A stretch of DNA of 64,000 nucleotides from an uncultured Dehalococcoidales bacterium (GTDB lineage: Bacteria; Chloroflexota; Dehalococcoidia; GIF9; AB-539-J10): NCBI GenBank assembly GCA_964586515.1, contig CAZPGJ010000001.1, positions 158,390-222,389 on the forward strand. The letters run 5' to 3'. The notes beneath the pieces are model-generated. The model made no database searches. It worked only from the letters and a program-made list of their open reading frames with translations, and was not told where the DNA came from. How positions within the stretch are numbered: the first letter of the stretch is position 1; every line of letters starts with the position of its first letter. This document shows, one piece after another, positions 7,666 through 50,193 of this stretch. Position numbers and translations under genes: made by a program.

Positions 7666-7686
7666 AACAACGCTGTAACAAATCCC

Positions 7687-7728
7687 CCCAGCACTCAGAG
7701 CTCTGAGTGCTGGGTTGCATTATTTTTA
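7687..7728 (+). terminator. Intrinsic terminator downstream of ftsZ: palindrome CCCAGCACTCAG-agct-CTGAGTGCTGGG followed by a T-rich tract. This is copy 1 of the CCCAGCACTCA palindromic repeat family.
   Basis: 12-bp perfect stem with a 4-nt loop and a TTGCATTATTTTTAT tail, at the end of the dcw operon. Confidence 0.6.
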
Positions 7729-8431: not shown

Positions 8432-9835
8432 ATGAATCTGGCAAATAGAAATCTGGTGACCATAGACGATTTATCCAACGGGGAAATCGAAGCATTGTTT
8501 TCTCTGGCAGACGAGATGGCGAACTCCCCAAATGAGCAGGCCGGACTATGCCAGGGGAAGATCATGGCCAGCTTGTTTTTTGAGCCAAGCACCCGGACCA
8601 GGCTGTCTTTTGAAGCTGGGATGCTCAGACTCGGGGGGCGTGTCATAACTGCCGTGGACATAGGGGCAAGCTCTCTGGCCAAAGGCGAAAGCATTGCTGA
8701 TATGGCGAAGGTGGTCGGAAGCTATGCCGATATAATTGTTATCAGGCACCCTTGGGAAGGAGCTGCCAGGGTGGTTGCCGACTATGCTGGTGTCCCCGTG
8801 ATAAATGCTGGCGACGGGAGCCATGAACATCCCACCCAAACCTTATGCGACCTCTACACTATTAGAAAAGAAAGGCAGACCATTAAGGGCCTCAGAATTG
8901 CTCTGTGGGGAGACTTGAAACACGGGCGAACAGTACATTCCCTGATCTATGCCTTAGCTAGGTTTGGTGCCACTATCCTTTTCTGTCCTGGCCCAGGGTT
9001 TGAGATGCCGGAGCATGTCCTCAGGAGACTAAACACAGAGTATAAAGGTGAGTTGAAAAATTGTAGGCATCTGAATCAAGAACTTGGAAGGAAGCTCTTC
9101 CCTATCGATGCCATATACTTGACTCCAAGTAGCCCGCATCAACTTGCCATGTTGCCTGACATAAGTATCCGAGTGGAACTGAAGGCGGGGGTTGACGCCC
9201 TTTATGTCACCAGGCTTCAAAAGGAAAGGCAGGCGCCCACGGTGGAGGAACAAGGGTTGAAAAAAGGCTACCCTGTGGTAGATAAAAAACTCCTTAAAGG
9301 AAAGGAGTTTAAGAAAACACTTGTTATGCATCCGCTGCCCCGTGTTAATGAGTTGACCCATGATGTGGATGCTGACCCCAGGAGCATGTATTTCAAGCAG
9401 GCAGCCTATGGGGTGCCCGTCAGAATGGCGCTCCTGGCCCTTTTATTGGGCGCCAAGGAAGTCACAATGCCTGAAGAAGAAGATTCCTTTATCTGGAAGA
9501 TAGATTATCCCGTTTATAAGCGGGATTCCGGTATTAAGTGCCCCAATAGAAACTGCGTCTCAAACCAGGAAACAGAAGTAAGATATATAAAGCCTGAGTT
9601 CAAAATAGTGAGTCGCGAGCCTTTGACATTGCGGTGCGTCTATTGCGACCATGAGCTTCATCCTCAATATGTCGCCAGCTCAGATTGGCATGAAGGGAAG
9701 CTGGAAAATAAGAAATATCACAGCGCTGACAGCCACTTCAGCCGGAAGATTAAACCCGAGAATCTGATTATTTTTGCCTCGGAAAAAGAAGCTGAGTCTC
9801 AGGGGTTCAAGCCCAGCAGCTATGTCAGACAATGA
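8432..9835 (+). CDS. pyrB: Aspartate carbamoyltransferase catalytic chain fused to a C-terminal PyrI-like zinc-ribbon domain (467 aa)
   Basis: ATCase motifs (STRTR, HPxQ, HPLP) in residues 1-~330. C-terminal ~135 aa contains CPNRNC...RCVYCDHE, resembling the PyrI zinc domain. Confidence 0.8.
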   Translation: MNLANRNLVTIDDLSNGEIEALFSLADEMANSPNEQAGLCQGKIMASLFFEPSTRTRLSFEAGMLRLGGRVITAVDIGASSLAKGESIADMAKVVGSYADIIVIRHPWEGAARVVADYAGVPVINAGDGSHEHPTQTLCDLYTIRKERQTIKGLRIALWGDLKHGRTVHSLIYALARFGATILFCPGPGFEMPEHVLRRLNTEYKGELKNCRHLNQELGRKLFPIDAIYLTPSSPHQLAMLPDISIRVELKAGVDALYVTRLQKERQAPTVEEQGLKKGYPVVDKKLLKGKEFKKTLVMHPLPRVNELTHDVDADPRSMYFKQAAYGVPVRMALLALLLGAKEVTMPEEEDSFIWKIDYPVYKRDSGIKCPNRNCVSNQETEVRYIKPEFKIVSREPLTLRCVYCDHELHPQYVASSDWHEGKLENKKYHSADSHFSRKIKPENLIIFASEKEAESQGFKPSSYVRQ

Positions 9836-11265
9836 ATAATGAAGCTATCTTTCTGCTTATCCGTGGCGGCCATATAATTGACCCCAGCCAGGGCATAGAC
9901 CAGGTTGGTGACTTGCTTATTGCTGAGGGCAAGGTTGTGCACTTGGGAGGCGAAATACCAACTGTCATTGCGAGTGACCTGCCCGCCTGCTCGCCGCACG
10001 ACTTCGGCAGGCGAGCCAAGGCTTGGCAGGCGGGAGCGAAGCAATCTCAAGCAATTGATGCCACTGGATTGATTGTCTGCCCCGGATTCGTAGACCTCCA
10101 CTGTCACCTCCGGGAGCCAGGTTTTGAGGATAAGGAAACAATCGCCACAGGGACAAAGGCAGCCGCCATAGGCGGCTTTGCCACTGTCTGCTGTATGCCG
10201 AATACCAATCCTCCCCTCGATAGCTCCTCTGTTCTAGACCTGGTGAAGAGAAATACGAGCAGGGAAAGCTTCATCACGGTTCTTCCCATAGGCTGCATTA
10301 GCAAAGGTAGGAAAGGCAAGGAATTGACCGATATGGCCAGGCTGGCAGAGGCCGGGGTGGTTGCTTTCAGCGACGATGGCGACCCAGTGAAAAGCTCACA
10401 GCTCCTGCGTCGTGCTATGGAACATAGCCGCGACCTGGGCCTGCCAATCATTGACCATTGCGAGGATAGAGCGCTGAGCGACAATGGAATCGTAAACGAA
10501 GGCCAGATATCTGCTAAGTTAGGTCTAAAAGGAATTCCTGCAGCCGCAGAAGAGGTCATTGTGGCGCGTGACTTGATTCTGGCAAAGTTGACCAGGGCCA
10601 GACTTCACATAGCCCATGTCAGCACCAGGGGCTCTGTAGAGCTTATTCGCCATGCCAAGGAAGAAGGGGGTTCAGTAACCGCTGAGGTTACACCCCACCA
10701 CCTGACTCTGACCGAGGACGCAATCACAGGCAGGTCTCACAATGACTCGCTTAATACTAACGCCAAGGTGAACCCACCTCTACGCACCAGCGAGGATATC
10801 GAAGCCTTAATCAGGGGACTCAATAACGGTGTAATCGATGCTATTGCCACCGACCACGCACCTCATACTCTGGCCGATAAAAATTGTGGGCCAGAGCTAG
10901 CCGCTTTTGGCATCAGCGGCTTTGAAACCGCTTTTGGCTGCCTCATGAGCCTGGTGCATGAAGGGAAAATAGACTTGACCATGCTGCTCTCCAAGCTCAC
11001 CTGTGAGCCAGCGAAAGTCATCAGTAGAAATGGTGAACTAGGCACCTTAAAGGCCGGCGCCCCGGCTAATATCAGCATACTCGACCCTGACCGGGAATGG
11101 ATAGTGGATAGCCGCAATTTTGCCTCTAAGGGCAAGAATACTCCTTACGATGGCTATAAGTTTAAGGGCAAGGTGATGGCAACCATAGCAAGCGGCAGGA
11201 TAGTTTACACTGATAACTCCCTTGTCATTGCGAGGAACAAAGTGACAAAGCAATCTCATGGCTAG
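9832..11265 (+). CDS. pyrC: Dihydroorotase carrying an in-frame ~85-bp palindromic repeat insertion near the N-terminus
   Basis: Amidohydrolase motifs (PGFVDLHCHLREPG, DHAPH). Residues ...VIASDLPACSPHDFGRRAKAWQAGAKQSQ... are encoded by the repeat at 9964-10048. Confidence 0.85.
   Translation: MNNEAIFLLIRGGHIIDPSQGIDQVGDLLIAEGKVVHLGGEIPTVIASDLPACSPHDFGRRAKAWQAGAKQSQAIDATGLIVCPGFVDLHCHLREPGFEDKETIATGTKAAAIGGFATVCCMPNTNPPLDSSSVLDLVKRNTSRESFITVLPIGCISKGRKGKELTDMARLAEAGVVAFSDDGDPVKSSQLLRRAMEHSRDLGLPIIDHCEDRALSDNGIVNEGQISAKLGLKGIPAAAEEVIVARDLILAKLTRARLHIAHVSTRGSVELIRHAKEEGGSVTAEVTPHHLTLTEDAITGRSHNDSLNTNAKVNPPLRTSEDIEALIRGLNNGVIDAIATDHAPHTLADKNCGPELAAFGISGFETAFGCLMSLVHEGKIDLTMLLSKLTCEPAKVISRNGELGTLKAGAPANISILDPDREWIVDSRNFASKGKNTPYDGYKFKGKVMATIASGRIVYTDNSLVIARNKVTKQSHG
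9964..10048 (+). repeat. Copy of the ~85-bp GC-rich structured repeat (GTCATTGCGAG...GCGAAGCAATCTC), in frame inside pyrC
   Basis: Near-identical to copies at 16497, 17207 and 26456 and to the inverted copy at ~34843. Internal complementary arms CCCGCCTGC/GCAGGCGGG and CTCGCC/GGCGAG. Confidence 0.85.
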
Positions 11266-12445
11266 GAAAGCGATTTTAGTCCTCGAAGATGGCTCGGTTT
11301 ACGAAGGCGAGGCCTTTGGCGCCAAGGCTACTACCTATGGTGAGGTAGTATTCAGCACGAGCATGACCGGCTACCAGGAGATGCTCACAGACCCTTCTTA
11401 TGCTGGTCAAATTCTAGTCCCCACCTATCCTTTAATTGGCAACTATGGCATCAACGAGTCCGATTTTGAATCTAAGCAAATTCAGGTCAGGGGCTTTGTT
11501 GTTCGAGAATATTGTCCTCGGCCCAGTCACTGGCAAAGCACCCGTACTTTGCACGAGTTTCTGTTGGCTTACGGCATTCCTGGCATCAGCGGCATAGATA
11601 CCCGTGCCTTAACTCGCCGCCTGAGGTCAAGCGGGGTGATGATGGGCATTCTCAGTTCAGAGATGACCATTGAAGAGGCATCGGCGGAGCTAAAAAGCTT
11701 ACCCAGATATGACTCTGTTAATTTTGTCCATCAGGTTAGCACTGAAAAATCATATGAGTGGCAATCCGGTATGCCTGTCACTGCGACCCCATCTTCCCTG
11801 TCATTGCCAGGAGCGTCAGCGGTTGCGAGGCGAAGCCGAAGCAAACTCGGCGAGATTCCTCGCTCACGCTCGGAACAGGCTCCGCAATCCCGTATAGTAG
11901 TTATCGACTACGGTCTGAAATACAACATACTGCGCATTTTGAGCCAGCTTGGCTGTCAGGCAACTGCTATCCCGTGCACTGCTTCAGCAAAAGATGTCCT
12001 AGCCTTAAATCCCGATGGTATTGTTCTCTCCCCTGGCCCTGGCGACCCTGCCCTCCTTGGTGACATAGCGGAGACGGTAAGAAATCTTATAGGTAAGAAG
12101 CCGATAATGGGCATATGCCTGGGGCATCAGCTTATAGGCAAGGCTTTAGGAGCACAGACATTCAAATTGAAGTTTGGACATCGTGGTGGTAACCATCCTG
12201 TGCGGGATTTGACTACCAGCAGAGTTTATATCACCGCTCAGAATCATGGCTATGCCCTGGATGCTGATACCTTGAAGGAAGGACTTGAGGTCAGCCACAT
12301 AAACCTGAACGATGGCACGGTGGAGGGGCTCCGCCACCGGGACTTGCCCATCCTATCCATTCAGTACCACTCCGAAGCTTCCCCCGGTCCCTGGGATAAT
12401 AAGTATCTATTTGAGAGATTTCTGGAGATGGTGGGGAGAACATGA
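11258..12445 (+). CDS. carA: Carbamoyl-phosphate synthase small (glutaminase) subunit, with a ~35-aa repeat-derived insertion in the interdomain linker
   Basis: N-terminal CPSase small-chain domain and class-I GATase triad region (GICLGHQ, HGYA). The linker PSSLSLPGASAVARRSRSKLGEIPRSRSEQAPQSR is encoded by degenerate repeat sequence. Confidence 0.85.
   Translation: MARKAILVLEDGSVYEGEAFGAKATTYGEVVFSTSMTGYQEMLTDPSYAGQILVPTYPLIGNYGINESDFESKQIQVRGFVVREYCPRPSHWQSTRTLHEFLLAYGIPGISGIDTRALTRRLRSSGVMMGILSSEMTIEEASAELKSLPRYDSVNFVHQVSTEKSYEWQSGMPVTATPSSLSLPGASAVARRSRSKLGEIPRSRSEQAPQSRIVVIDYGLKYNILRILSQLGCQATAIPCTASAKDVLALNPDGIVLSPGPGDPALLGDIAETVRNLIGKKPIMGICLGHQLIGKALGAQTFKLKFGHRGGNHPVRDLTTSRVYITAQNHGYALDADTLKEGLEVSHINLNDGTVEGLRHRDLPILSIQYHSEASPGPWDNKYLFERFLEMVGRT
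11776..11870 (+). repeat. Degenerate/composite copy of the GTCATTGCGAG...GAAGCAATCTC repeat family (GTCACTGCGACC...GTCATTGCCAGG...CGAAGCAAACTC...GAGATTCCTCGCTC), in frame inside carA
   Basis: Terminal motifs of the family are recognisable with mismatches; the interior has diverged. Confidence 0.5.
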
Positions 12446-12735
12446 AAAATCCAGAGGTATTTATTAACATTTTAAAAGAGAATTGGCTTCACGCCCGGCA
12501 CATAGAGATTGTGAGGATGCTGTTTGCCAACATATATGCAGCAATTATTGCTGGGGTGTTAGCTTATCTAGGTAAATCGGGATTACATATTATGCCTCTC
12601 GCTGCTCTTCTTGTGATATCAATATTTTGGCTTTGTTTTACATTAAAACAAAATGCTGAATTTGCCAATCACATGAAATCAATCGAAAATATTTTTAACG
12701 ATGGGAAAATATCTCTGGGAGAGCAAAATGAGTGA
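12442..12735 (+). CDS. Hypothetical small membrane protein (97 aa, two predicted TM helices) between carA and carB
   Basis: ORF overlaps the carA stop (ATGA). Hydrophobic segments IYAAIIAGVLAYLG and LAALLVISIFWLCF. Low-GC segment. No recognisable family. Confidence 0.35.
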   Translation: MKNPEVFINILKENWLHARHIEIVRMLFANIYAAIIAGVLAYLGKSGLHIMPLAALLVISIFWLCFTLKQNAEFANHMKSIENIFNDGKISLGEQNE

Positions 12736-12913
12736 AGAAAATATGTTGGCATGCCTCTCTCAGCCAAAGGGGGAATATGGAGGATACTCAGAGTAAGCAC
12801 CATATTTGTCGTTTTTTATGTGGCGGTTATTATAACACTCGTTTCACTGATAATTTATGTTTTGGTGCGTTAGTTAAGTGAAGAAATACCCAGAATTCCC
12901 TATAAGAAACAAA

Positions 12914-15900
12914 ATGTCCAAAATATCTAAAGTCTTAGTCATTGGCTCGGGGCCGATAATCATCGGACAGGCGGCGGAGTTCGATTATTCCGGGACTCAG
13001 GCATGCCGAGCACTGAGAGAAGAGGGCGTGACCACGGTCCTGGTGAACTCGAACCCGGCCACCATCATGACGGACGAGGGCATTGCTGATATCGTTTATA
13101 TCGAGCCGCTCACGGTGGAAGTCCTGGCTCGCATAATTGAAAGAGAGCGTCCCGATGGCTTATTGCCTACACTGGGTGGGCAAACAGGGCTCAATTTGGC
13201 GGTGGAGTTAGCCGATGCCGGCGTACTCGACAAGTATCATGTGCGGTCTCTGGGCACACCTATAGAAACGATAAAGAAGGCTGAAGAAAGGTCTTTGTTC
13301 AAGCAGCTTCTTCTTGATATTGGCGAGCCTGTGCCTCCAAGCAAAACTGTAAAATCGGTGGAAGAAGCAAAAGAACTGGCAAGGTCCATAGGTTTGCCTC
13401 TCATTGTCCGCCCTTCCTATACTCTGGGAGGCACTGGCGGCGGCATCACTTACACTATGAAAGAGCTCGAACAGACCGTTGCTAATGGTCTGGATTCCAG
13501 CATGAGCCACGAGGTTCTGGTGGAGCAATGTGTTTTAGGTTGGAAGGAAATTGAATTTGAAGTCATGCGAGATGCTGCCGACAACTGCATCGCTGTCTGT
13601 ATCATGGAGAACATTGACCCCATGGGCGTTCATACCGGGGATAGTATCGTAGTAGCCCCCAGCCAAACTCTCACCGACAAAGAATACCAGATGCTCAGGT
13701 CGGCCAGTTTAAAAATCATAAGGGCGCTGAAAATCGAGGGTGGCTGCAATATACAGTTCGCCCTTACTCCACATCCCATAGTTGCGGAAAAATGGGCTCC
13801 GGACCAGAAGGGAGTCACAAGAAGCCAATATCACGTAATTGAAGTTAACCCTCGTGTCAGCCGTAGTTCGGCTTTAGCCAGTAAAGCCACGGGCTATCCT
13901 ATTGCCCGGGTCGCTGCCAAAATAGCCATAGGCAAGAGACTCGATGAAATCCCCAATAGGGTCACAGGCAAAACACTGGCGTCTTTCGAGCCAGCTCTGG
14001 ATTACTGCGTAGTCAAGATTCCCAGATGGCCCTTCGATAAATTTGCTTTGGGTGACCGAAAAATTGGCAGTCAGATGAAAGCCACTGGTGAGGTAATGGC
14101 CATTGACAGGTGTTTTGAGGCTGCTCTGCAAAAGGCAGTGCGCTCCCTGGAATTCGGCAAACGCACCCTGCTCTGGGAAGACCTCAGTTGGAGTAGAGGG
14201 GAGGGGCTTAATTCCTATCCGCTTTACCCTAACGACTTAAGACTATGGGCGATCATGGCAGCGCTGCGAAGGGAGGCCAGGCCCGAAGAGCTCTCACAGG
14301 TCACCGGCATAGACCCCTGGTTTATTTATAAGTTCCAGAATATTGTGGACATGGAGAGGAGGCTTCTTTCCGAACCGTTGACACCGGAGCTTTTATGGGA
14401 GGCGAAGAGGCTGGGCTTTTCCGATGAGCAAGTAAGCACTTTGGCCGATAGGTTGCCAGAGCAGGTAAGACAGGCTCGCCATCAATGGAAAATTTGTCCG
14501 GTGTACAAGATGGTGGATACCTGTGCCGCCGAATTTGATGCTGAGACCCCTTATTTCTACAGCACTTATGAAAGAGAAAACGAAGCTGATTCCCTGGCAG
14601 AGAAGAAAGCTGTGGTTATCGGCAGCGGGCCGATACGCATCGGGCAGGGAATTGAGTTCGACTATTGCTGCGTTCATTCAGCCTGGGCGCTTCAAGAGAT
14701 AGGCATAAAGAGCATCTTGGTCAATTCTAATCCCGAGACAGTTTCCACTGATTTTGACACCAGTACTCGCCTCTATTTCGAAGCATTGGACGAGGAAAGC
14801 ATCCGAAATATACTTCAGAATGAGAGTAACAACGGTTCTGCTCCACCATCCATCGTCCAGCTTGGTGGACAAACACCTATTAATTTGGTTGGAGTCTTAG
14901 CTCGCAACAATTTGCCGATACTTGGCTCGAGCGCCGAAGCTATAGACATAGCTGAAGACCGCCGTCGCTTTGAAGATTTCCTGGACAGACTAGGTATTCC
15001 TCAGCCGCCAGGGGCTGGAGTAACATCCATTGAAGCGGCATTAAATGTAGCCAAGTCCTTAGGTTATCCTGTGTTAGTGCGCCCTAGCTATGTCCTGGGG
15101 GGCCGGGCTATGGAAATCGTGTATAACGAGCCTGAGTTAATCCGCTACCTGACATTAGCTCTGGAGATGGATAGCCAGCATCCTGTGCTTATTGATAAAT
15201 ACTTCCAGGGTAAAGAAGTCGAGGTAGATGCCATTTGCGATGGCGAAAAGGTTCTTATTCCTGGCGTGATGGAGCATATTGAAAGAGCTGGCGTACATAG
15301 CGGTGATGCCTTGGCTATCTACCCGGGAATCAACCTGACTCCGGAAGAAGTAGATACTATGGTGGATTACACCATGAGGATTGGACCGGCCCTGGGAATT
15401 AAAGGGTTGATGAACGTTCAGATGGTAATAATGAGGGACCCAGCACTCAACTCGTTGAGTGCTGGGCGCTCAACGGTATATGTTTTTGAGGTAAATCCCC
15501 GCGCCAGCCGAACCGTACCTTTTATCTCCAAGGTAACTGGCGTGCCCATGGTAAGAATTGCCACTAAGGTCATGGCTGGGATTAGCCTCAAGGAGCAAGG
15601 CTATGAAGGCGGGTTATGGAAGAGACAAAAGTTGGTAGGTATAAAGGCTCCCGTTTTTTCTATGTCAAAATTGACTGGAGTAGATAGCTACCTCGGTCCT
15701 GAGATGAAATCCACAGGCGAGGTTATGGGGATTGATTACAGCTTTGAGGCGGCCCTGGTTAAGGCCCTTTTAGCTGCTGGATTGATGCTGCCTCAAGGAG
15801 GTAGTCTGCTACTTAGCATTGCCGACAAGGATAAAACTGAAGCCGAGCCTCTGATTAAGCAATTGCATTCCCTGCGCCACGAGCTCTACGCCACGGAGGG

Positions 15901-16213
15901 GACCGCAGCGATGATTGAATCTATGGGGTTCCCGGTAAAAATGGTGACCAAGAAGCTAAGCGAAGGACATCCTAACGTTGTTGATGTTATTCAAGATAAT
16001 TCTGTGAGCGGAGTGATTAATACTATCACTGGAGGGCGCATTCCGCTAAAAGACGGCTTAGATATCAGGCGCGCCGCGGCAGAAAAGAGGATACCATGCT
16101 TCACCTCATTAGATACTGCTCGGGTAGCTATAGGAGCATTAGTAAATAGTAGACAAATCTTTAACGTTCAACCACTCAGGGAGTACTTAAGAAAATCAAA
16201 AGGCAAAAGTTAA
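12914..16213 (+). CDS. carB: Carbamoyl-phosphate synthase large subunit, carrying an in-frame 30-nt palindrome insertion
   Basis: ORF 12878..16213; conserved start [20 protein letters not shown] at 12914. Two ATP-grasp halves and an MGS-like C-terminus. Residues [10 protein letters not shown] are encoded by the palindrome at 15439-15466. Confidence 0.9.
15439..15466 (+). repeat. Copy 2 of the CCCAGCACTCA palindrome family (CCCAGCACTCAA-ctcg-TTGAGTGCTGGG), in frame inside carB
   Basis: 28-bp near-perfect palindrome. The G>A change on the left arm is compensated by C>T on the right arm relative to copies 1 and 3. Confidence 0.7.
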
Positions 16214-16316
16214 AAATCAAAATTACAATTCAAAATGGAAAAATGCTTCGTTTTTGATTTTTGCTCTGTCATTTTGCTTTTTTATCTTTAAATTTTGATA
16301 TTGTTTAGGTTTTAGC
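16214..16316 (+). repeat. AT-rich intergenic repeat (family with ttttgatttttg / gtcattttg / caaaatg motifs) between carB and pyrK
   Basis: Shares motifs with the spacers at 32584, 45087, 45636, 47752 and 50380. Confidence 0.45.
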
Positions 16317-17195
16317 ATGAAACAAACCTTGTGCTCCGTAACCTCTAATGTGGAAGTCATGCCCGGCATACACCTCATGTGGATTGAGGCACCAGATATA
16401 GCAGTGACGGCTCAGCCGGGGCAATTCATCACAGTGCGGTGTGGAAGTTTTACATTGCGCCGCCCTTTCAGCGTCCACCAAGTTGGGAGTAATAATGTCA
16501 TTGCGAGCGACCTGCCCGCCTGCTCGCCGTACGACTTCGGCAGGCGAGCCAAGGCTTGGCAGGCGGGAGCGAAGCAATCTCAAGTTGCCCTTCTGTTCAA
16601 GGTAACAGGCAAAGGTACCCTCTGGCTGTCGCAGCGACAAATAGGTGAGAGGATAGACATTCTTGGCCCCTTGGGTAAGGGGTTTAGTATCGAACCAAAA
16701 TCTAAACATTTGCTGCTGGTGGCTGGGGGAATTGGCATTGCTCCGCTTGTTTTCTTGATGCAGCATGCTTCATCTCAGCACCAGATAACTTTAATTCACG
16801 GGGCGAGCACTGCTGCTCAACTCTATACCGAGCGCTGTCAGCTAACAGCCATCAGCTATCAGGGAGTTCAATTTATTCCTGTCACCGAAGATGGCACCAT
16901 GGGCCAAAAAGGCATGGCCACGGATATCCTGCCTGATTTCCTAGACTGGGCTGACCAGGTGTATGCCTGCGGGCCTGTAGACATGTACAAGGCAATGGCG
17001 GAGATGTCATTGCGAGCGGAGCGAAGCAATCTCAAACTGAAGAAATGTCAGGTTTCCCTTGAGGTGCGGATGGGGTGTGGTTTTGGAGCTTGCTACGGCT
17101 GCACTGTAAATACCAAGAAAGGCTTAGAACGCATATGCCGTGATGGACCTGTATTTGAGTTGGACGATATCATATGGCAGGAGATAAAGATATGA
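16317..17195 (+). CDS. pyrK: Dihydroorotate dehydrogenase electron-transfer subunit PyrK (FAD/NAD-binding, 2Fe-2S), with two in-frame repeat insertions
   Basis: Ferredoxin-reductase fold motifs (RRPFSV, GGIGIAP) and a C-terminal Cys cluster CGFGACYGC. Repeat copies at 16497-16581 and 17006-17033 are translated in frame. Confidence 0.8.
   Translation: MKQTLCSVTSNVEVMPGIHLMWIEAPDIAVTAQPGQFITVRCGSFTLRRPFSVHQVGSNNVIASDLPACSPYDFGRRAKAWQAGAKQSQVALLFKVTGKGTLWLSQRQIGERIDILGPLGKGFSIEPKSKHLLLVAGGIGIAPLVFLMQHASSQHQITLIHGASTAAQLYTERCQLTAISYQGVQFIPVTEDGTMGQKGMATDILPDFLDWADQVYACGPVDMYKAMAEMSLRAERSNLKLKKCQVSLEVRMGCGFGACYGCTVNTKKGLERICRDGPVFELDDIIWQEIKI
16497..16581 (+). repeat. Full-length copy of the ~85-bp structured repeat, in frame in pyrK
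   Basis: GTCATTGCGAGCGACCTGCCCGCCTGCTCGCCGTACGACTTCGGCAGGCGAGCCAAGGCTTGGCAGGCGGGAGCGAAGCAATCTC. Confidence 0.85.
17006..17033 (+). repeat. Minimal 28-bp copy holding only the two terminal motifs (GTCATTGCGAGCGGAGCGAAGCAATCTC), in frame in pyrK
   Basis: Termini of the family abut with the interior deleted. Confidence 0.6.
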
Positions 17196-17206
17196 CCACC
17201 CACTCC

Positions 17207-17291
17207 GTCATTGCGAGCGACCTGCGCGCCTGCTCGCCGTACGACTTCGGCAGGCGAGCCAAGGCTTGGCAGGCGGGAGCGAAGCAATCTC
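17207..17291 (+). repeat. Full-length copy of the ~85-bp structured repeat, intergenic (12 nt after the pyrK stop)
   Basis: One mismatch (CCTGCGCGCC) relative to the consensus. Confidence 0.85.
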
Positions 17292-17310
17292 TTTGGAAGG
17301 AGGTAAGAAT

Positions 17311-17730
17311 ATGACCGTGGTAACCAAGGATATCACCCTTCAATCAAGAGGTAATTGTGACATCATCGATATAACCTCTCAGGTGGCCAAGAATGTCGAG
17401 AAATCTGGGGTTAATAGTGGAATAGTCACCCTGCTTATAGTCGGTTCAACAGCGGGAATAACCACCATAGAGTATGAGCCAAATCTACTTTCCGATTTCA
17501 AGAATATGTGGGATAGGGTGATACCCCAGAATATTCCTTACGAGCATAATAAAACCTGGGGGGATGGGAATGGCCATTCCCACGTGCGTGCTTCCACGCT
17601 CGGAGCTTCACTAATAATACCTTTTGTGAATAAGAGGTTAACTCTGGGCACCTGGCAGCAGATAATTTTCGTAGATTTCGATAATCGTCCCAGGTCCAGA
17701 AAGATTGTTATTCAGATATTGGGCGAGTAA
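17311..17730 (+). CDS. YjbQ/UPF0047-family protein (secondary thiamine-phosphate synthase-like)
   Basis: ORF 17266..17730; likely start ATG 17311 after GGAAGGAGGT. Family pattern visible (ITLQSRGNCDIIDIT...GIVTLLIVGSTAGITT...HSHVRAS). Confidence 0.6.
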   Translation: MTVVTKDITLQSRGNCDIIDITSQVAKNVEKSGVNSGIVTLLIVGSTAGITTIEYEPNLLSDFKNMWDRVIPQNIPYEHNKTWGDGNGHSHVRASTLGASLIIPFVNKRLTLGTWQQIIFVDFDNRPRSRKIVIQILGE

Positions 17731-21613: not shown

Positions 21614-21805
21614 AGCTATTGCCGCATATTATAGCCTGCTCCAGTAATTTGTGGAAGGGGTCAAATTAAATCGTCCACTCTAGTTCTTAAAGTCCTGCTT
21701 TTGCCCTCGTTCCCTCTGGACTATCAATTCTTCCCTTTGCAATTGCCTGAATGTCTCGCTTTCTCCTTGCCTGAGTTGTCAGTAGGGGTTAAAACTGCTA
21801 GATTT

Positions 21806-22924
21806 ATGTCAATGTCTTACCGTCGCATAGTGGCTAAATTCGGCACAAGCCTCCTTACCTCGGGCACTGACCACCTCGACTTGAAAGTTATGTCAAGTTT
21901 GGTGGAGCAGCTAGCCCGACTCCATGGCCAGGGGAAGGAGATAGTCATAATCTCTTCCGGAGCTATCGTCTCAGGAAGACAGAAGCTCAAGAAAGTTCCA
22001 GAACGCAAGAACACTCCTTTCAAACAGGTACTGGCTTCGGTGGGCCAAAGCCACCTCATGTATACCTATGAACAACTTTTCAGCCAGTATGATATAACCG
22101 TGGCCCAGGCATTGCTCACCAAGGGAGACCTCTCCGACCGGAGTGGCTATCTTAATGCCCGCAATACCCTGCTGGCCCTTATCGAGCTGGGCATAATCTG
22201 CATTGTCAATGAGAATGACGTTGTCGCCATTGATGAGATTGAAGAGCTCAAATTCGGGGATAATGATAACCTTTCCGCCATGGTGGCTAATCTGGTTGAC
22301 GCTGACATTTTAATCATGCTCACCGACATCGGCGGGTTATACACTGCCGACCCGCATTACAATCCCCAAGCTCAACTTATTCGCCGGGTGGACAAGATTG
22401 ACGCCAAAATTGAACGCATGGCTAGCGATACTGCCAGCCACCAGGGGATCGGCGGCATGGCGACTAAGGTTGAGGCAGCCAAGTTAGCTACTTGTTCAGG
22501 GGTAAACGTAGTCATCGTCAATGGACGAGAACCTGACATACTGGTGAGGATTAGCCAGGAAGAAGACATAGGCACTTTCTTTCCTGCGCCGGTAAATAAG
22601 ATGGAGAGCAAAAAGAGGTGGATGCTCAGCGGGCTGGCTTCCAAGGGCAAGGTCACGGTGGACAAAGGCGCTGTCTTAGCCCTCAAGGAGCACAATAAGA
22701 GCCTGCTCCCTGCGGGGATTATGAAAGCTGAGGGGAAGTTCCAGCGCGGCGATATTGTGGATATACTCGACGAGAAGGGCAAACACATCGGCTGTGGTAT
22801 TTCCAACTATAGCTCTTCTGATTTAGCTATCATCGGAGGGAAGCACTCTGATAAAATCCCCAGTCTCCTCGGCTACGATTATGGCGACGAAGTGGTTCAC
22901 AGGAACAATATGGTGATATTATGA
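21806..22924 (+). CDS. proB: Glutamate 5-kinase with C-terminal PUA domain
   Basis: ORF 21701..22924; conserved start MSMSYRRIVAKFGTSLLT at 21806. Amino-acid kinase fold plus PUA domain. Confidence 0.85.
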   Translation: MSMSYRRIVAKFGTSLLTSGTDHLDLKVMSSLVEQLARLHGQGKEIVIISSGAIVSGRQKLKKVPERKNTPFKQVLASVGQSHLMYTYEQLFSQYDITVAQALLTKGDLSDRSGYLNARNTLLALIELGIICIVNENDVVAIDEIEELKFGDNDNLSAMVANLVDADILIMLTDIGGLYTADPHYNPQAQLIRRVDKIDAKIERMASDTASHQGIGGMATKVEAAKLATCSGVNVVIVNGREPDILVRISQEEDIGTFFPAPVNKMESKKRWMLSGLASKGKVTVDKGAVLALKEHNKSLLPAGIMKAEGKFQRGDIVDILDEKGKHIGCGISNYSSSDLAIIGGKHSDKIPSLLGYDYGDEVVHRNNMVIL

Positions 22925-23553: not shown

Positions 23554-24057
23554 TGTTTATTCAGGCAATTAAGACCCTTGCGTAGCAATCTGTACATCAA
23601 TATAATAGCATTTGTCAATATTTACGGCAAATTATTACTTGTCTTTAAGGGGTAGTTGCAGAATGATATATAAAAATAGCTCCCGGTGGTAGGACCCCAC
23701 GCCTGTACAGACGCTGCCATCTTCAGCAGATGACCAACCATTCCCCAGGAGCTTTTCTTACTACTATCAAAATTATAGTAAAATGTTATAGTATTGTCAA
23801 TATTTGATTGGCATTTGCAACGAGGTGGGGTTATGGATAAATTGAAAACCAATGTTTTGTATTATGGCTACAAGGTGATTCACGGGAACACCATGGTGTT
23901 TATCGTGAACAGTATGAAAACAAGTTTAAGGAGTATAAGTGAATAGTCATCTCATAGAAATCCTTGAGGACGAAGAACTCAAAGCTAGAATACAGAGGAA
24001 ATTGCCCTACTTATTTAACATTGCTGAGCTAGAAAGCTCCCGAGCAGGAAAAATTGG

Positions 24058-24570
24058 ATGCAGGTGGGCTCGCTTAGGGAAAACGTTATAATAGCTCTAC
24101 TTATATATAAATTCGGAGAACAAAACGTAGAAACCGAGATTCCCATTACCGAGCCAGAAGTTGATGTCAGATTATTTGGTCAACCCGTGTCTATCAAGAC
24201 AATTACAGGTAAAAGGTTTAGTGGAGTTAAGATTATATGGACAGTTGATGCTCAGAAAGCACGGCAATTTCGACAGAGCTACTATCCTCGATGTGATACT
24301 TTATTCGTGCAGGTTAATTGGGGTGGTAAGGGCGGACTTTACTACTTACCATTAGAGGTTCAAACAAAGGTATTTAATGCAATAGGCAGAGCAGCGTATA
24401 TTAAACTTCCTAAGCCAGGGACAAATCCGAGAGGCGTGGAAATCACTAACGAGGCGTTAGAGGCTGTAGTTACCGATAAAGAGTCCAAAGCTATTGAGAT
24501 ACGTTGGCAAAGAACAGAAATAGACTATGATCCATACCAGAGATGGGTTGACCACTGGAGGGAGGAATGA
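24058..24570 (+). CDS. Hypothetical protein, candidate small type II restriction endonuclease; possibly frame-disrupted at the 5' end
   Basis: 170-aa ORF overlapping the downstream methyltransferase start by 4 nt (ATGA). A further ~40-codon open frame (VNSHLIEILEDEELKARIQRKLPYLFNIAELESSRAGKIG) runs into its start in another frame. No confidently recognisable catalytic motif. Confidence 0.35.
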   Translation: MQVGSLRENVIIALLIYKFGEQNVETEIPITEPEVDVRLFGQPVSIKTITGKRFSGVKIIWTVDAQKARQFRQSYYPRCDTLFVQVNWGGKGGLYYLPLEVQTKVFNAIGRAAYIKLPKPGTNPRGVEITNEALEAVVTDKESKAIEIRWQRTEIDYDPYQRWVDHWREE

Positions 24571-25595
24571 AGATGAAAAGAGGGACTAAGACAAGTTCAT
24601 TTGGTTCGCCAGGGCGCATAAACCACGATTCCACTCGCTTCTACGCCAGCAGACTCTATGAAAGTCTGCCTAAAGAAGAAAAAGGCGCATATGTAGAAAA
24701 TCCTATTCCTCCCGAATTCCTTGATAAAGTATTCTGTAAATCAAGCGAAAAGATGGCGGAATTACCTGACAATAGTGTTCACATAATGGTAACTTCTCCA
24801 CCCTACAACGTAGGCAAACAGTATGATGAGGATTTGACGCTCGAAGGATACAAAGAGTTTCTAAAAAGGGTATGGCAAGAAGTCTACAGAGTGCTTGTGC
24901 CCGGTGGCAGAGCTTGTATAAATATCGCCAACCTCGGGAGAAAACCATATATTCCACTCCACGCTTTTGTCGTTGAAGATATGCTTGAGTTAGGCTTTCT
25001 TATGCGAGGAGAGATTATCTGGAACAAGGCTTCAAGCTCTAGCCCCTCCATGGCTTGGGGAAGCTGGCTTTCTGCGGCTAACCCAACACTGAGAGATATT
25101 CACGAATATATATTAGTTTTTTCTAAAGGAACTTTTGCTCGAAAGAAACAGCCGAATAGAAATAGCACTATATCTAGAGAAGAATTTCTTGAATTAACCA
25201 AGAGTGTGTGGACATTCCCTGCAGAGCAGGCAAAGAGTATCGGGCATCCCGCGCCTTTCCCCGTGGAGTTACCATATAGGCTCATCCAACTCTATACTTA
25301 CGAGGGAGATGTTGTCTTGGACCCCTTTATGGGAAGCGGGCAAGCAGCTATAGCCGCGATAAAAACGAGACGACACTATATAGGCTATGATATAAATGAG
25401 GAATATGTTAAGCTGGCAGAGAGACGAATTAGAAGATTTAGCTATGTCCAAGATGTTCCTGCAATGTTTGATTTCATAGTCAAAGAGAACAGAGCAGACA
25501 TAGCTATAGAGGAAGAGTCAGAAGGCGAAAAACAGGGGAAGGCGAACTATGAAATCAGCCGTAAAAGAGCTGGAAGAGAAGGGAAAGGCAGCTAA
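24567..25595 (+). CDS. DNA methyltransferase, beta-class N4-cytosine/N6-adenine family (TSPPY motif IV preceding DPFMGSGQAA motif I); likely m4C
   Basis: Motif order IV then I with SPPY and FxGxG, typical of the PF01555 N4/N6 methyltransferases. Confidence 0.8.
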   Translation: MKMKRGTKTSSFGSPGRINHDSTRFYASRLYESLPKEEKGAYVENPIPPEFLDKVFCKSSEKMAELPDNSVHIMVTSPPYNVGKQYDEDLTLEGYKEFLKRVWQEVYRVLVPGGRACINIANLGRKPYIPLHAFVVEDMLELGFLMRGEIIWNKASSSSPSMAWGSWLSAANPTLRDIHEYILVFSKGTFARKKQPNRNSTISREEFLELTKSVWTFPAEQAKSIGHPAPFPVELPYRLIQLYTYEGDVVLDPFMGSGQAAIAAIKTRRHYIGYDINEEYVKLAERRIRRFSYVQDVPAMFDFIVKENRADIAIEEESEGEKQGKANYEISRKRAGREGKGS

Positions 25596-26907
25596 GGCAG
25601 CTTCGAGAAAGCTGGCGTTCCTTTCTACGGAAGTTAAGAATAAGGCTTTGGTCAATATCGCTGAGGCTCTTATCGCTAGAAAGGACGAAATCTTAGCTGC
25701 CAACAAGATTGATTACGAGGAGGCGAAGGCTTCAGGGATGAATGAAGCCATGCTGGACAGGCTTATGCTGTCGCCATCTCGCCTGGAAGGCATAGCCCAG
25801 GATACAAGAACAGTGGCGGCGCTGCCTGACCCGGTAGGCGAGGTGTTCGAGATGCGGACCTTGCCCAATGGTTTACAGATAAGCAAGAGGCGAGTCCCCC
25901 TGGGAGTCATTGGTGCGATATATGAGAGCCGCCCCAATGTCACCATAGACATATCGAGCCTGTGCCTTAAATCAGGCAACGCCGTCATCCTCCGTGGTGG
26001 CAAGGAAACCATAAATTCGAACAAGGCCTTAGCCAGGGTAGCTCAAGAAGCCTGTGACCAGGCCGGCGTGCCCCAGGGAGCCATCCAGCTTATCGAGTCC
26101 ACAGAACGGACTTTAGTCAATCACATGCTCAAGATGAAGGGAATAATTGACTTGATGATTCCCCGCGGCGGCGCTGGTTTGATAAAGCTTGTCTCGGAGA
26201 ATGCCGCTATGCCGGTAATTACCGGCGGCATCGGTGTCTGCCATACCTATGTGGACAAGAGTGCCGACGTGAACAAAGCGGTTGCCATCGCCTATAATGC
26301 CAAAGTCCAGCGCCCTACCGTGTGCAATGCTCTCGATTGCATTCTGGTCCATAATCAGATTGCTCAAGCTTACCTGCCGGCTATCGCCAAAGAGTGGGCC
26401 AAGGCCGGCGTGGAAATGCACTGCGACAAGCGAGCCTTGGCTATACTTAAGCAATGTCATTGCGAGCGACCTGCCCGCCTGCTCGCCGTACAACTTCGGC
26501 AGGCGAGCCAAGGCTTGGCAGGCGGGAGCGAAGCAACCTCCCCACCCTTAAAGCTAGTCCCGGCCACAGATGAGGACTGGGGGAAGGAATATCTATCCTT
26601 GAAAGCGGCTATTAAAGTGCTTGACTCTCTGGACGAAGCTCTGGAGCACATTGAGAAATATGGCTCGGGGCACTCCGAAGCTATCGTTACCGAAGACCAT
26701 TCGGCAGCAATGCGCTTCCTCAACGAAGTGGATGCCGCCTGTGTTTATGCCAATGCCAGCACTCGGTTCACCGACGGGGGGCAGTTTGGATTAGGCGCTG
26801 AGATAGGCATAAGCACGCAGAAATTTCACGCCCGCGGTCCCATGGCATTGAAAGAGCTAACCAGTTACAAGTGGATTATCGTGGGCAGCGGGCAAGTTCG
26901 GCCTTAG
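25549..26907 (+). CDS. proA: Gamma-glutamyl phosphate reductase with an in-frame ~85-bp repeat insertion
   Basis: Aldehyde-dehydrogenase-fold ProA motifs throughout. Residues CERPARLLAVQLRQASQGLAGGSEATS are encoded by the repeat at 26456-26540. Confidence 0.85.
   Translation: MKSAVKELEEKGKAAKAASRKLAFLSTEVKNKALVNIAEALIARKDEILAANKIDYEEAKASGMNEAMLDRLMLSPSRLEGIAQDTRTVAALPDPVGEVFEMRTLPNGLQISKRRVPLGVIGAIYESRPNVTIDISSLCLKSGNAVILRGGKETINSNKALARVAQEACDQAGVPQGAIQLIESTERTLVNHMLKMKGIIDLMIPRGGAGLIKLVSENAAMPVITGGIGVCHTYVDKSADVNKAVAIAYNAKVQRPTVCNALDCILVHNQIAQAYLPAIAKEWAKAGVEMHCDKRALAILKQCHCERPARLLAVQLRQASQGLAGGSEATSPPLKLVPATDEDWGKEYLSLKAAIKVLDSLDEALEHIEKYGSGHSEAIVTEDHSAAMRFLNEVDAACVYANASTRFTDGGQFGLGAEIGISTQKFHARGPMALKELTSYKWIIVGSGQVRP
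26456..26540 (+). repeat. Full-length copy of the ~85-bp structured repeat, in frame in proA (a different reading frame from the pyrC/pyrK copies)
   Basis: Two substitutions (GTACAACTTCGG, GCAACCTC) relative to the consensus. Confidence 0.85.
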
Positions 26908-31428: not shown

Positions 31429-32583
31429 TTAATCCTCTCCCTTCAAGGGAGAGGGGAATGCTTGGGATTGCTTCCTCTTCGTTTTACTCAGAGTCGCAGT
31501 GACAGGTAGGGTTTTAAGTGCCTCAATTAAGACATCGGTATCCTCAGGTCTGCCCACGCTGATTCGCAGGCAGTCTTTCAATCTAGAAGTATCAAAATAG
31601 CGAACAAAGATGCCTTTCTTCCGCAGTTGTTGCCAGATTTCTTTGGCCTTTCCTTCGGGCAGAGAACAGAGAATAAAATTAGCCTGGGAGGGGTGAGGCT
31701 TTAGCCAATCCAGTTCCTTCAGTTTGCCAAATAACCGCTCCCGTTCCGTAACTATCCTGGTAACATTAGCACGAAGATACTCTATATCTGCCAGGGAAGC
31801 TAACACCGCAGCCTGGGCTGCGGCATTGGCATTATAGGGCTGCTTAATCTTCATCAGATAACCAGCAATTTTTGCGGGGAAGAAGCCGTAGCCTATCCTT
31901 AAGCCGGCTAGCCCGGCCCATTTGCTGAAGGTGCGTAAAACTATCAAGTTGGGATAACTGGGTACCAAGTTGGCCACGGTCACATTGCTGAATTCAAAAT
32001 AGGCTTCGTCCACGACAACAACCTTCCCCGTATCAACAAGCTCCATAATCTCTTTCTCAGAGGCGGTGTCGCCGGTAGGATTATTGGGCGAGGCGATAAA
32101 GATAGCCTTTGTTCTCCTAGTCAAGGCCTTCTTCATACCAACAATATCAATGGTAAAATCTTTGGTCCGGGGCACATCAACCACCCTGCCCCCACAGATA
32201 TCGGTGCTAAACGGATACATGCCGAACGTCGGTGGACAATTGATGACCTCGTCCCCCGGCTTGAGGAAAAGCCTGAGGATAAGGTCAATAAGCTCATCGC
32301 TGCCCATGCCACAAACAATGTGCTGGCGTCCCAGGCCGGTATATTCTTCTAAAGCCTTCCGCAGCTCCCTTTGCTCGGGGTCGGGGTAATTATGATAATA
32401 GGGATAAGTGGCCAGAGCTTGATAGACCTTGGGGGAACAGCCATAGGGATTCTCGTTGCCATCAAGCTTTATTACCTTATTCGCAGGCAATTCAGCTTGT
32501 TGGCTCAAAACTTCCGTAGGCTCGATAGGGATGTAACCCTTCATGGTCACGAGCTCAGGCCTGATAAGTTTTTTTATGTCCAT
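31429..32583 (-). CDS. hisC: Histidinol-phosphate aminotransferase (PLP fold type I)
   Basis: Class-II aminotransferase pattern; TFSKWAGLAGLRIGY has the PLP-lysine context. Confidence 0.8.
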   Translation of the reverse strand: MDIKKLIRPELVTMKGYIPIEPTEVLSQQAELPANKVIKLDGNENPYGCSPKVYQALATYPYYHNYPDPEQRELRKALEEYTGLGRQHIVCGMGSDELIDLILRLFLKPGDEVINCPPTFGMYPFSTDICGGRVVDVPRTKDFTIDIVGMKKALTRRTKAIFIASPNNPTGDTASEKEIMELVDTGKVVVVDEAYFEFSNVTVANLVPSYPNLIVLRTFSKWAGLAGLRIGYGFFPAKIAGYLMKIKQPYNANAAAQAAVLASLADIEYLRANVTRIVTERERLFGKLKELDWLKPHPSQANFILCSLPEGKAKEIWQQLRKKGIFVRYFDTSRLKDCLRISVGRPEDTDVLIEALKTLPVTATLSKTKRKQSQAFPSPLKGED

Positions 32584-32667
32584 TTCAACCTAAACTAAAA
32601 GTCAAAAATTAAAAATCAAAATGACAAATTAAAATGTAAATATTTTTGCCTTTTGCATTTTAATCTT
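32584..32667 (+). repeat. AT-rich intergenic repeat (aaagtcaaaaat / aaaatcaaaatgacaaa / ttgcatttt) between hisC and hisD, inside the his operon
   Basis: Shares motifs with the other AT-rich spacers (16214, 45087, 45636, 47752, 50380). Confidence 0.45.
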
Positions 32668-40283: not shown

Positions 40284-40455
40284 GTCATTCTGGGAGTCCA
40301 AATGAAGTTGGACGAAGAATCTCTGGACATTGTCGTGAGCTATGCGAAGGGCTCAGAATGACACATCATTCTGTCATTGCGAGGCATGAGACGGTGCCGA
40401 AGCAATCTCAGTGGGGCAGAGGATTGCCACGCACCTTTCAGGTGCTCGCAATGAC
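40284..40455 (+). repeat. Compound cluster of TIR-bounded short elements (GTCATTCTGGG...CTCAGAATGAC; GTCATTGCGAG...GAAGCAATCTCA...CTCGCAATGAC) in the SPFH-mcm spacer
   Basis: Several nested inverted terminal motifs of the GTCATT[GC/CT]GAG family read directly. Confidence 0.6.
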
Positions 40456-42740: not shown

Positions 42741-42859
42741 ATCAACCCCCAAAAAGTCTTGCGACTCTTTGGGGATCTAGGGTAAATTTGATTCTAAATT
42801 AAAAGGGCCCTCGCGAAAATCGCAAGATTTTCGTGGGTGGTTTAGAGAGGGAGTAGACT

Positions 42860-43270
42860 ATGAACAAAGGTAGGATTCGTGTTCTGCTAGCCAAGCCTGG
42901 TTTAGATGGGCATGACCGAGGTGCTAAAGTGGTAGCGAGGGCTCTGCGGGATGCCGGCATGGAGGTAATCTATACTGGTATCCGACAAACTCCCGAGATG
43001 ATTGTCGAGGCAGCTATCCAGGAGGATGTAGATGTTATTGGGTTGAGCATCCTGTCGGGAGCTCATTTAGAGCTCTTTCCACCAATCGTAGAAGGATTAA
43101 GGAAGAAAGGAAGAGCAGATGCCCTGGTTATCGCTGGTGGCATAATACCTGAGGATGATATTCCCGCCTTACAACAAATGGGCGTAAAAGCTGTTTTTGG
43201 CCCGGGCACTTCCACAGAGGACATCATCCGCTTCATCCACAAGGAAATAACCCAGCACTCAGCGTGCTGA
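42860..43270 (+). CDS. Methylmalonyl-CoA mutase B12-binding subunit (cobalamin-binding Rossmann domain, DxHxxG)
   Basis: [16 protein letters not shown] motif. The last codons and the stop lie inside the CCCAGCACTCA palindrome. Confidence 0.85.
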
Positions 43271-43278
43271 GTGCTGGG
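43251..43278. repeat. Copy 3 of the CCCAGCACTCA palindrome family (CCCAGCACTCAGC-g-TGCTGAGTGCTGGG) between convergent mcm-B12 and pyrD; putative bidirectional terminator
   Basis: 13-bp stem. It supplies the C-terminal residues and stop of the plus gene and sits 8 nt from the stop of the minus gene. Confidence 0.65.
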
Positions 43279-50066: not shown

Positions 50067-50193
50067 AACAGAAGAGGTTATCAATGCAAAAACCAATTAA
50101 ATCATAACATTTAAATATTAAGATTCTATTAAATTTAGGGGGATGTGACATCTTTTTATAGCGGCTGGAGAGGAAAGAGAATCTCCACTCCCC

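Follow-up and report, generated by a model that had tools for sequence, protein, structure and literature searches.

Two in-frame segments in the pyrimidine operon of a Dehalococcoidales bacterium as copies of one family of small palindromic repeats

We asked how two short in-frame segments came to lie in genes of a pyrimidine operon. The operon belongs to a stretch of 64,000 nucleotides from an uncultured Dehalococcoidales bacterium (contig CAZPGJ010000001.1; this whole stretch is called the window in the following), and its gene order is kept in related contigs. One segment is found in carA (11258-12445), in the linker between the two domains of the protein, the other one in a loop encoded by pyrK (16317-17195). 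A sequence-only reading of the window had taken an 85-nt repeat as the original mobile unit, the carA segment as an old, diverged insertion of it, and the pyrK segment as a copy that had lost its interior by deletion. All four DNA strings that it quoted for carA are present, and so is its pyrK string at 17006-17033.

Both segments are copies of one family of repetitive extragenic palindromic (REP)-like repeats, and we consider it probable that such copies pass through the insertion of a small unit, the rewriting of its loop and, finally, slow decay. The common membership had already been claimed, and it is borne out by the matches to the family termini and by a canonical unit in related carA genes. 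The segments were also right to be called in frame and tolerated, as all CarA and PyrK relatives examined have intact open reading frames (ORFs) with an element at these sites. On the other hand, the descent of both segments from the 85-nt form does not stand up to a comparison of related loci.

For this comparison we used 85 related pyrK genes and the 120 closest CarA proteins; the latter served for the linker, and the DNA identity of the long carA allele was taken from 9 loci. The related loci carry labels such as L001. In total, 749 kb of related DNA were scanned for repeat units and 685 kb of related loci for the 57-nt module described below. The closest CarA relatives are metagenome proteins, a few of which bear Chloroflexi or Dehalococcoidia labels. 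The same alleles recur across many independent metagenomes and in one NCBI genome assembly. The interior types found in each genome were assigned by hand in a table made from the sequences.

A family defined by its ends

Many copies in the window share their termini but differ in their interior, and the family is therefore defined by its ends, with a variable middle. A unit consists of an unpaired [C/T]GTC tag, a 5-bp stem ATTGC...GCAAT, a variable loop and a short tail (CTC here). In the smallest form, 26-28 nt long, the loop is essentially a mini-hairpin GCGNAGC between GA and GAA; this basic unit folds into the 5-bp stem, a GA/GAA internal loop and a 2-bp stem with a 3-nt loop, and the loops of long units reach up to ~80 nt. 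Both TGTC and CGTC tags occur in the window, and the tag is unpaired in all folds. The A-T residues at the start of the stem are present in the ATTGC/GCAAT type as well as in a sister type, ATTCT/AGAAT, and the paired changes between the two types keep the stem. The 28-nt and 35-nt units do not fold with better energies than shuffled sequences do, and structure alone does not define the family.

The termini are clearly enriched. The 13-nt 5' terminus GTCATTGCGAGCG, with at most 2 mismatches, occurs 16 times in the window where 1.1 occurrences are expected, and the 15-nt 3' terminus GAGCGAAGCAATCTC, with at most 3 mismatches, 10 times where 2.1 are expected; no shuffle reached either number. 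In the 749 kb of related loci we counted 130 units.

To see the family beyond these loci, we scanned one genome per species across phyla with the pattern GTCATTGCGAG-N(2-32)-CGAAGCAATC, which returned at least 120 stretches; the statistics given here come from 116 units in 80 listed loci. Among the matches listed, the hosts are Alpha- and Gammaproteobacteria, Bacteroidota, Chloroflexota, Cyanobacteria, Patescibacteria, Zixibacteria, Planctomycetota, Desulfobacterota, Firmicutes and others, and the units often stand in inverted pairs ~20 nt apart. The base preceding GTC is a C in 70 of the 116 units (60%) and a T in 39 (34%). Among the interiors, CGAAG is the most common, and CGCAG, CGTAG and CGGAG, which differ from it by one letter, come next. 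The tail is usually CCA(G) or CTC; at least 48 of the 116 tails, mostly from Proteobacteria, start with CCA, and the window lineage and other Chloroflexota have CTC or CCC.

As a way to recover diverged copies, the sequence-only reading had proposed a profile hidden Markov model built from the full copies. A profile made from the four 85-nt copies of the window did not find the two segments at a significant level (E = 1.4 for carA, E = 0.59 for pyrK), although it did reveal a copy without termini in hisG. The membership of the two segments therefore rests on the termini and on the orthologous comparison. An Rfam search of the whole window gave no match at the repeat elements; its sole match was a DUF3800-VII RNA (23670-23756, minus strand). 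Literature searches with the termini and the encoded peptides found nothing relevant.

We also considered a miniature inverted-repeat transposable element with terminal inverted repeats and rejected it. The termini are complementary over no more than 5 nt, and their ends are not symmetric (GAG vs GAA). There is no short duplication at the intragenic sites; the one clear duplication is 17 nt long.

The long unit in carA

The carA gene encodes ...PSSLSLPGASAVARRSRSKLGEIPRSRSEQAPQSR..., and here we find a long unit of 92 nt (11800-11891, plus strand), in frame and in sense orientation, which encodes approximately SLPGASAVARRSRSKLGEIPRSRSEQAPQS. It lies in the linker between the N-terminal and the glutamine amidotransferase domains. 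E. coli CarA aligns to residues 1-172 and 197-392, so that the linker has 24 residues here vs 3 in E. coli.

At the same position, related carA genes have a canonical 35-nt unit, GTCATTGCGAGGAGCGTCAGCGACGAAGCAATCTC, and the long type retains the first 22 nt and the last 8 nt of this short type. The common 5' part is GTCATTGCCAGGAGCGTCAGCG (11800-11821), in which the window has a G>C change in the bulge (GCGAG>GCCAG) that is also found in L079. It is followed by 62 nt of loop content (11822-11883), which replace ACGAA of the short allele (net +57 nt) and hold a unit-like piece, GTTGCGAGGCGAAGCCGAAGCAAACTC, and a piece that resembles a reversed terminus, GAGATTCCTCGCTC. The true 3' stem arm and tail are GCAATCCC (11884-11891; GCAATCTC in relatives). 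Judged from these alleles, the carA copy is a 35-nt unit with a loop enlarged by 57 nt. The strings quoted earlier for carA had thus been located correctly but parsed wrongly, as the true 3' end was missed and the internal CGAAGCAAACTC (11837-11848) was taken for it. The upstream string GTCACTGCGACC (11778-11789) is kept in relatives whatever element they have, except for the L005/L036-type allele with its different upstream linker. Since nearly all other alleles share it, we read it as host linker sequence.

A repeat-derived peptide of some kind is present in the linker of all 120 closest CarA proteins. We distinguish a short type, SLSLRGASATKQS, the type of the window, SLSLRGASAVARRSRSKLGEIPRSRSEQAPQS (~37 proteins), and a third type, ISSPLKGEDKGEGEAKQS with longer variants, which comes from another repeat family. 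The long, short and other alleles are spread over a CarA tree for which the linker had been left out.

The long interior does not resemble that of the 85-nt copies. It has no other occurrence in the 749 kb of related DNA, and we had regarded it as unique to carA; this idea was dropped when a search by peptide turned up the element in small intergenic ORFs unrelated to CarA. In L212, a 92-nt long unit that shares 96% identity with the carA copies forms an intergenic inverted dimer with the reversed basic unit that comes after it. Since a carA-like long unit is found between genes, we have here a subtype of the family that is dispersed and not, as had been thought, a diverged version of the 85-nt copy.

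The element is better conserved than the gene around it. Among the 9 loci with the long allele, mean pairwise identity is 0.92 for the element and 0.95 for its interior, compared with 0.84 for the rest of carA, 0.66 for third positions and 0.77 for the 40 nt upstream. In a sliding window over 5 loci, positions 11813-11887 are the most conserved stretch of carA. Could the elements, or at least the long hairpin of carA, be kept by selection for a function of their own? Such a function might be that of a protein-bound hairpin in mRNA or DNA, of a signal for expression or decay of the pyr transcript, or of the linker peptide itself. Selection on a nucleic-acid hairpin is the main rival for the carA element; in its favour, the high conservation includes synonymous positions. 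Furthermore, every intragenic copy is in sense orientation, and a study of CGTC-tagged REPs (Di Nocera, De Gregorio & Rocco 2013, BMC Genomics 14:522; PMC3733652) argues for a role of many REPs as RNA elements.

The predicted structure gives a mixed answer. The predicted fold of the long unit is one nested hairpin, with ATTGC/GCAAT and GGAGC/GCUCC closing it, and two compensatory changes (A-U to G-C) fall into the predicted stems in L208, a result that 10 of 500 shuffles match. However, the same 8-sequence alignment has eleven pair-breaking cells, and folding gives weak z-scores, with -1.5 for the carA unit and ~0 for the 28-nt one; set against the broken pairs, the compensatory changes are weak support for selection on the hairpin. 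Close relatives hold quite different elements at the carA site, which means that no single sequence is required there, and the pyrK unit is not conserved above the synonymous rate. Finally, the near-identical intergenic long unit offers gene conversion as another cause of the conservation. All in all, we regard a selected function as quite unlikely to be what keeps the elements in place.

The pyrK unit and the direction of size change

The pyrK segment, GTCATTGCGAGCGGAGCGAAGCAATCTC (17006-17033, plus strand), has a length of 28 nt and matches both family termini exactly, back to back. It is read in frame as ...M SLRAERSNL K... and is located in a loop ahead of the C-terminal Fe-S cluster segment. 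Compared with the canonical pyrK unit, GTCATTGCGAGCGAAGCGAAGCAATCTC, the window is one base off, a change common to L012 and L047. By its sequence, the copy is the canonical basic unit of the family. About 60 of the 85 related pyrK genes have a 39-nt segment with this unit or a point-mutated version of it, and 5 have a hairpin interior, TCCCGAYnnnATCGGGA, at this position; in the remaining ones, other repeat families replace or extend the unit. A long interior is present at the 17006 site in none of the 85 genes.

The mean pairwise identity of the pyrK unit is 0.834, vs 0.798 for flanking third positions and 0.938 for first and second positions. In other words, the unit drifts near the synonymous rate and is almost neutral. 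In two loci, L007 and L014, 9 nt have been deleted from it. No such unit is present in PyrK proteins of outgroups (53% identity or less), and the PyrK of L. lactis has a 7-residue gap opposite to it. We take the unit to be old and fixed before the Dehalococcoidia-like clade radiated. As for the length of the insertion, the earlier estimate of 10 residues was too high, as outgroups and solved PyrK structures have a loop that is shorter by only 4-7 residues.

The size of the 85-nt copies has to be seen against this background. Four of them (starting at 9964, 16497, 17207 and 26456) are 92-100% identical to each other. The one in pyrK, at a different position that we call site 1 (16497-16581, plus strand), consists of the basic unit and a 57-nt loop module (16510-16566) that contains a 30-nt hairpin. 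The alleles at this site are nested and have identical junctions: ~40 loci are empty (HQVSSREIA), others have the 28-nt unit alone or together with a 17-nt hairpin (40 nt), 5 loci have the unit with 27 additional nt (55 nt), and the window, as the only one, has the unit with 27 and 30 additional nt (85 nt).

In pyrC (9832-11265), the 85-nt copy is found at 9964-10048 (plus strand), and L003 has a 28-nt unit at the same site; other relatives have a unit of the sister type there, GTCATTCTGA..CAGAAT. Seemingly empty pyrC alleles (L001, L005, L049 and L060; e.g. ACTGTCATTCTGAACAAGGCGCAGAAT) look like decayed units of the ATTCT/AGAAT type. Another 85-nt copy (26456-26540, plus strand) lies in frame in a proA-like gene of the aldehyde dehydrogenase family (25549-26907). 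The fourth one stands between pyrK and the following UPF0047/yjbQ gene.

All four sites in the window have the 85-nt form, and at the three sites that can be compared relatives have 28 or 55 nt. Because relatives still hold these shorter versions, the 85-nt copies are derived forms, with 28 nt first, then an addition of 27 nt, and then one of 30 nt. The direction was deduced from the identity of the junctions and from the restriction of modules to lineages; trees of PyrK and CarA gave scattered states and not clean clades. Outside of the window, the 57-nt module was absent from the 685 kb of related loci. Within the window it occurs once more on its own, without the family termini, in frame in hisG (34082-35557, minus strand). 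This copy (34837-34893, minus strand; nhmmer E = 4.8e-17, profile positions 12-71) is 98% identical. The 30-nt module is also seen in the loop of an unrelated hairpin in L046, and the hairpin TCCCGATnnnATCGGGA has flanks of at least 4 different kinds.

The junction of pyrK and yjbQ gives a second view of the same process. Here, the 85-nt copy (17207-17291, plus strand) is flanked by a 17-nt duplication (17180-17196, GGAGATAAAGATATGAC, and 17299-17315, GGAGGTAAGAATATGAC) which covers the pyrK stop and the ribosome-binding site and start region of yjbQ. In the empty allele the stop and start codons overlap (ATGA), and all filled alleles have the same 17-nt duplication and the same spacers. Since the flanks are identical in all filled alleles, they go back to a single insertion event. 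The interiors nevertheless are of at least five types. The 28-nt form is present in 15 loci and a hairpin in 8; L077 holds 55 nt and the window 85 nt, and 5 loci have other sequences. The 17-nt duplication, which is far longer than usual target-site duplications, may have let both pyrK and yjbQ survive the insertion.

In 10 of 14 genomes the interior types agree between two sites (permutation p ~0.01, not corrected for phylogeny). Because of the nested alleles, the modules on their own, the single junction insertion with its many interiors and this agreement within genomes, we conclude that units stay where they are while their loops are rewritten, and that large forms are the derived ones.

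What is then left of decay and internal deletion as an explanation? Some of it can be seen: small internal deletions do occur (9 nt each in L007 and L014, and also in another element in L026), the pyrK unit evolves near the neutral rate, and in the carA copy of the window both the 3' tail and the bulge that follows the 5' stem arm have lineage-specific changes. However, the 57-nt interior is confined to the lineage of the window and the pyrK 28-nt unit is clade-wide, with no long interior in any relative at its site. Nor does the pyrK copy look like a full copy without its interior, since its interior type (CGAAG, CGGAG and the like) is the commonest one among the 116 units, and the 28-nt form is the commonest across phyla. 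The carA copy is not decaying, as its interior is unlike that of the 85-nt copies and better conserved than the surrounding gene. The derivation of both segments from an 85-nt mobile unit is already contradicted at both sites, and we consider it very improbable.

That the segments are native coding sequence resembling the repeat, or an artefact of metagenome assembly, is hardly credible: the pyrK site does lack an empty allele within the clade (0 of 85 genes) and the closest outgroup loop is similar in character (RRRNELLKGKPT vs AKRSNLKLKKC, ~4 residues shorter), but the 28 nt match two independent termini exactly, the identical unit recurs at further sites and in further phyla, other repeat families supply some of the alleles at these sites, and the alleles come from many independent metagenomes as well as from an NCBI genome assembly.

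Proposed history, neighbouring features and comparison with known systems

Copies inside genes are subject to strict constraints. In the long ORFs of the window and the related loci, 78 of 78 intragenic units are in sense orientation, and they represent ~9-11 distinct sites in six gene families. In-frame copies are found in pyrC, carA, pyrK, the proA-like gene and hisG, and the size steps of genic copies are all multiples of three. The sites are the domain linker of CarA and loops whose length differs between distant homologues. The basic unit has a stop in one of its three antisense frames, which accounts for only a part of the orientation bias.

We propose that the insertion of a unit is rare and would happen once per site. 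A unit within a gene would survive only if the frame is kept, no stop is introduced, the orientation is sense and the site is a linker or a surface loop. From then on it would be a fixed site with a loop that is often rewritten, either by palindromic modules landing in the loop or by gene conversion among copies with common termini; the steps in loop size that we saw are 17, 27, 30 and 57 nt. Copies would also drift by point mutation and small deletions. The 28-nt copy of pyrK would then be on its way from the insertion stage to drift, and the carA copy in the rewriting stage, as a 35-nt unit converted to the 92-nt long-hairpin subtype. The 85-nt copies, specific to the lineage of the window, would be in the rewriting stage as well. 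Mobilisation might take place in trans, with a single-stranded hairpin form of the DNA as the substrate of the enzyme; conversion and module insertion may each have a share in the rewriting.

Several observations weigh against this history. The mobilisation step is entirely inferred: no transposase or RAYT-like / Y1 gene (RAYT, REP-associated tyrosine transposase) was found among the 39 scanned ORFs of the window, and a mobilising enzyme for CGTC-type REPs is not known according to PMC3733652. We saw no clean short target-site duplication, and the intragenic junctions resemble replacements rather than pure insertions. For pyrK, there is the missing empty allele, and the gain in loop length is so small that the insertion must have displaced native codons, unless the unit came about otherwise. 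The high conservation of the carA element could reflect selection and not conversion or recent spread. Metagenome contigs may be chimeras of strains, and this would make the shuffling of alleles relative to their flanks look greater than it is. Moreover, the stem of 5 bp with its GA/GAA internal loop differs from the stem of 8-9 bp and the loop of 4-5 nt given for CGTC-tagged REPs in that study.

One may go a step further and suppose that REP units in essential genes act as landing pads, with loops that are rewritten by insertion or conversion directed to the hairpin loop, so that housekeeping enzymes obtain fast-changing, cassette-like peptide loops, and that at least the long hairpin of carA is under nucleotide-level selection for a function in the DNA or mRNA of the pyr operon. 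We mention this as a tentative idea that is rather unlikely to hold.

Further units of the family are spread over the window. A 34-nt unit with the interior GAACAAAGTGA (11224-11257, plus strand) covers the last codons of pyrC and reaches the start codon of carA (11258); a near-identical partner is found at 34012-34043 (minus strand). Inverted dimers are formed by 40373-40407 (plus) with 40422-40455 (minus), by the unit at 49990 (plus) with 50034-50069 (minus) and by the unit at 50195 (plus) with 50311-50346 (minus), and, as described, one is present in L212. An intact copy of the sister type, in which changes on both sides keep the pairing of the ATTCT/AGAAT stem, lies at 50219-50247.

Other repeats are present as well. 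A different palindromic repeat, ACCCAGCACTCAACTCGTTGAGTGCTGGGC, is in frame in carB (12878-16213) at 15438-15467 and adds 7 residues compared with VIMRENGRSTVYV in 43 relatives; this insert is otherwise found only in L059, and further copies of the repeat are at 7686-7715 and 43250-43279. At 31433-31455 and 50558-50580, the window also has a second family of repeats, TCTCCCTTSAAGGGAGA, after which GGTGAGGGTGA often comes, with the reading SPLKGEDKGEGE. In relatives, this family competes for the same intragenic sites of carA, pyrK and pyrC. A hairpin with an apparent GTAG tag, GTAGGGGAGGGTCTTGTACCCTCCC, is nested in this family at pyrK site 3 of relatives. Two direct repeats of 89 nt (42748-42836 and 44254-44342, 75% identical) flank pyrD (43259-44203, DHO_dh), far from pyrK. 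AT-rich stretches (AAATCAAAAGGCAAAAGTTAAAAATC..., TTGTCATTTTGATTTTTGAC...) are located just downstream of genes (16193-16301, 32592-32676, 45170-45217 and 50415-50462), and a similar one follows the intergenic dimer in L212.

The pyrimidine operon also includes a pyrB-pyrI fusion (8432-9835). The space between carA and carB is variable: in the window it has an ORF of 97 amino acids without a Pfam match (12442-12735), in L001 it has nothing, in L003 two ORFs (297 and 169 amino acids), and in L005 one of 273 amino acids. Between proB (21701-22924) and the proA-like gene there are genes for a ThaI-like restriction endonuclease and an N4/N6 DNA methylase (24058-25595). The DUF3800-VII RNA lies just upstream of this pair, and L001 has a different methylase/nuclease gene there.

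What do these repeats mean for the proteins that carry them? In metagenome proteins, peptides like VIASEAKQSQ, SLRAERSNL and SLRGASA...KQS are read-through of a REP family that spans many phyla, and recognising them helps in annotation, in the alignment of CarA, PyrK and PyrC, and in the detection of spurious ORFs. The history proposed here gives a testable picture of small repeats, in which the small unit comes first, the loop is enlarged later and interiors are exchanged, and the junction of pyrK and yjbQ is a natural experiment with one insertion and many interiors. An insert in carA that is better conserved than the coding sequence of the enzyme raises the question of gene conversion or selection. 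Dehalococcoidia populations with active, lineage-specific modules are good material for finding the enzyme of the CGTC-tagged REPs. The repeats themselves belong to a known class, and it is the site histories that are unusually informative.

This class is that of the CGTC-tagged REPs. As defined in PMC3733652, these are stem-loop units of 20-40 bp in many copies, with a CGTC or TGTC tag, a stem that opens with A-T pairs, a short tail (consensus CCA) and inverted dimers; copies in frame in ORFs, insertion in other palindromes and the lack of a linked transposase are described there too. The article classes the Rickettsia elements RPE-4 and RPE-6 as CGTC REPs and reports CGTC repeats from five phyla, Chloroflexi not included. 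The string ATTGCGAG is not in the supplements of the article. Compared by the description of the class, our family fits: the units of 28-40 nt are present in many copies, the tag is unpaired, the stem starts with A-T and then T-A, and there are intergenic inverted dimers, in-frame copies in ORFs and insertions within other palindromes, with no linked transposase. The stem is shorter. The tail, short as in the class, is CTC in the lineage of the window where the class has CCA, a start found in at least 48 of the 116 units.

Rickettsia palindromic elements (RPEs), reportedly described by Ogata et al. in 2000, are palindromic repeats that lie in frame in housekeeping genes and are translated as extra peptides in tolerant regions of the proteins. 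RPE-1 has 100-150 bp and is specific to Rickettsia. The likeness to our family lies in palindromic insertions retained in frame in housekeeping genes; the units here have 28-92 nt, and their interiors turn over at fixed sites among close relatives.

REPs with a GTAG tag, together with the bacterial interspersed mosaic elements (BIMEs) and the REP doublets forming hairpins (REPINs), are mobilised by RAYTs. Like our family, they are high-copy hairpins with inverted doublets, with variable loops that are sometimes palindromic (GTAG-14) and with a single-strand hairpin as the proposed substrate. In contrast to them, the tag here is GTC preceded by C or T and not GTAG, and we saw no RAYT in the window.

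Finally, the insertion sequences IS1397 and ISKpn1 insert into REP loops, and enterobacterial repetitive intergenic consensus (ERIC) elements have internal insertions. These systems are precedents for a hairpin as the preferred target of a second element, and for short versions that exist along with internally expanded ones. While the inserts are full insertion sequences there, or pieces of ~70 bp in intergenic ERICs, those described here are palindromes of 17-57 nt which lie inside coding regions and always keep the frame.

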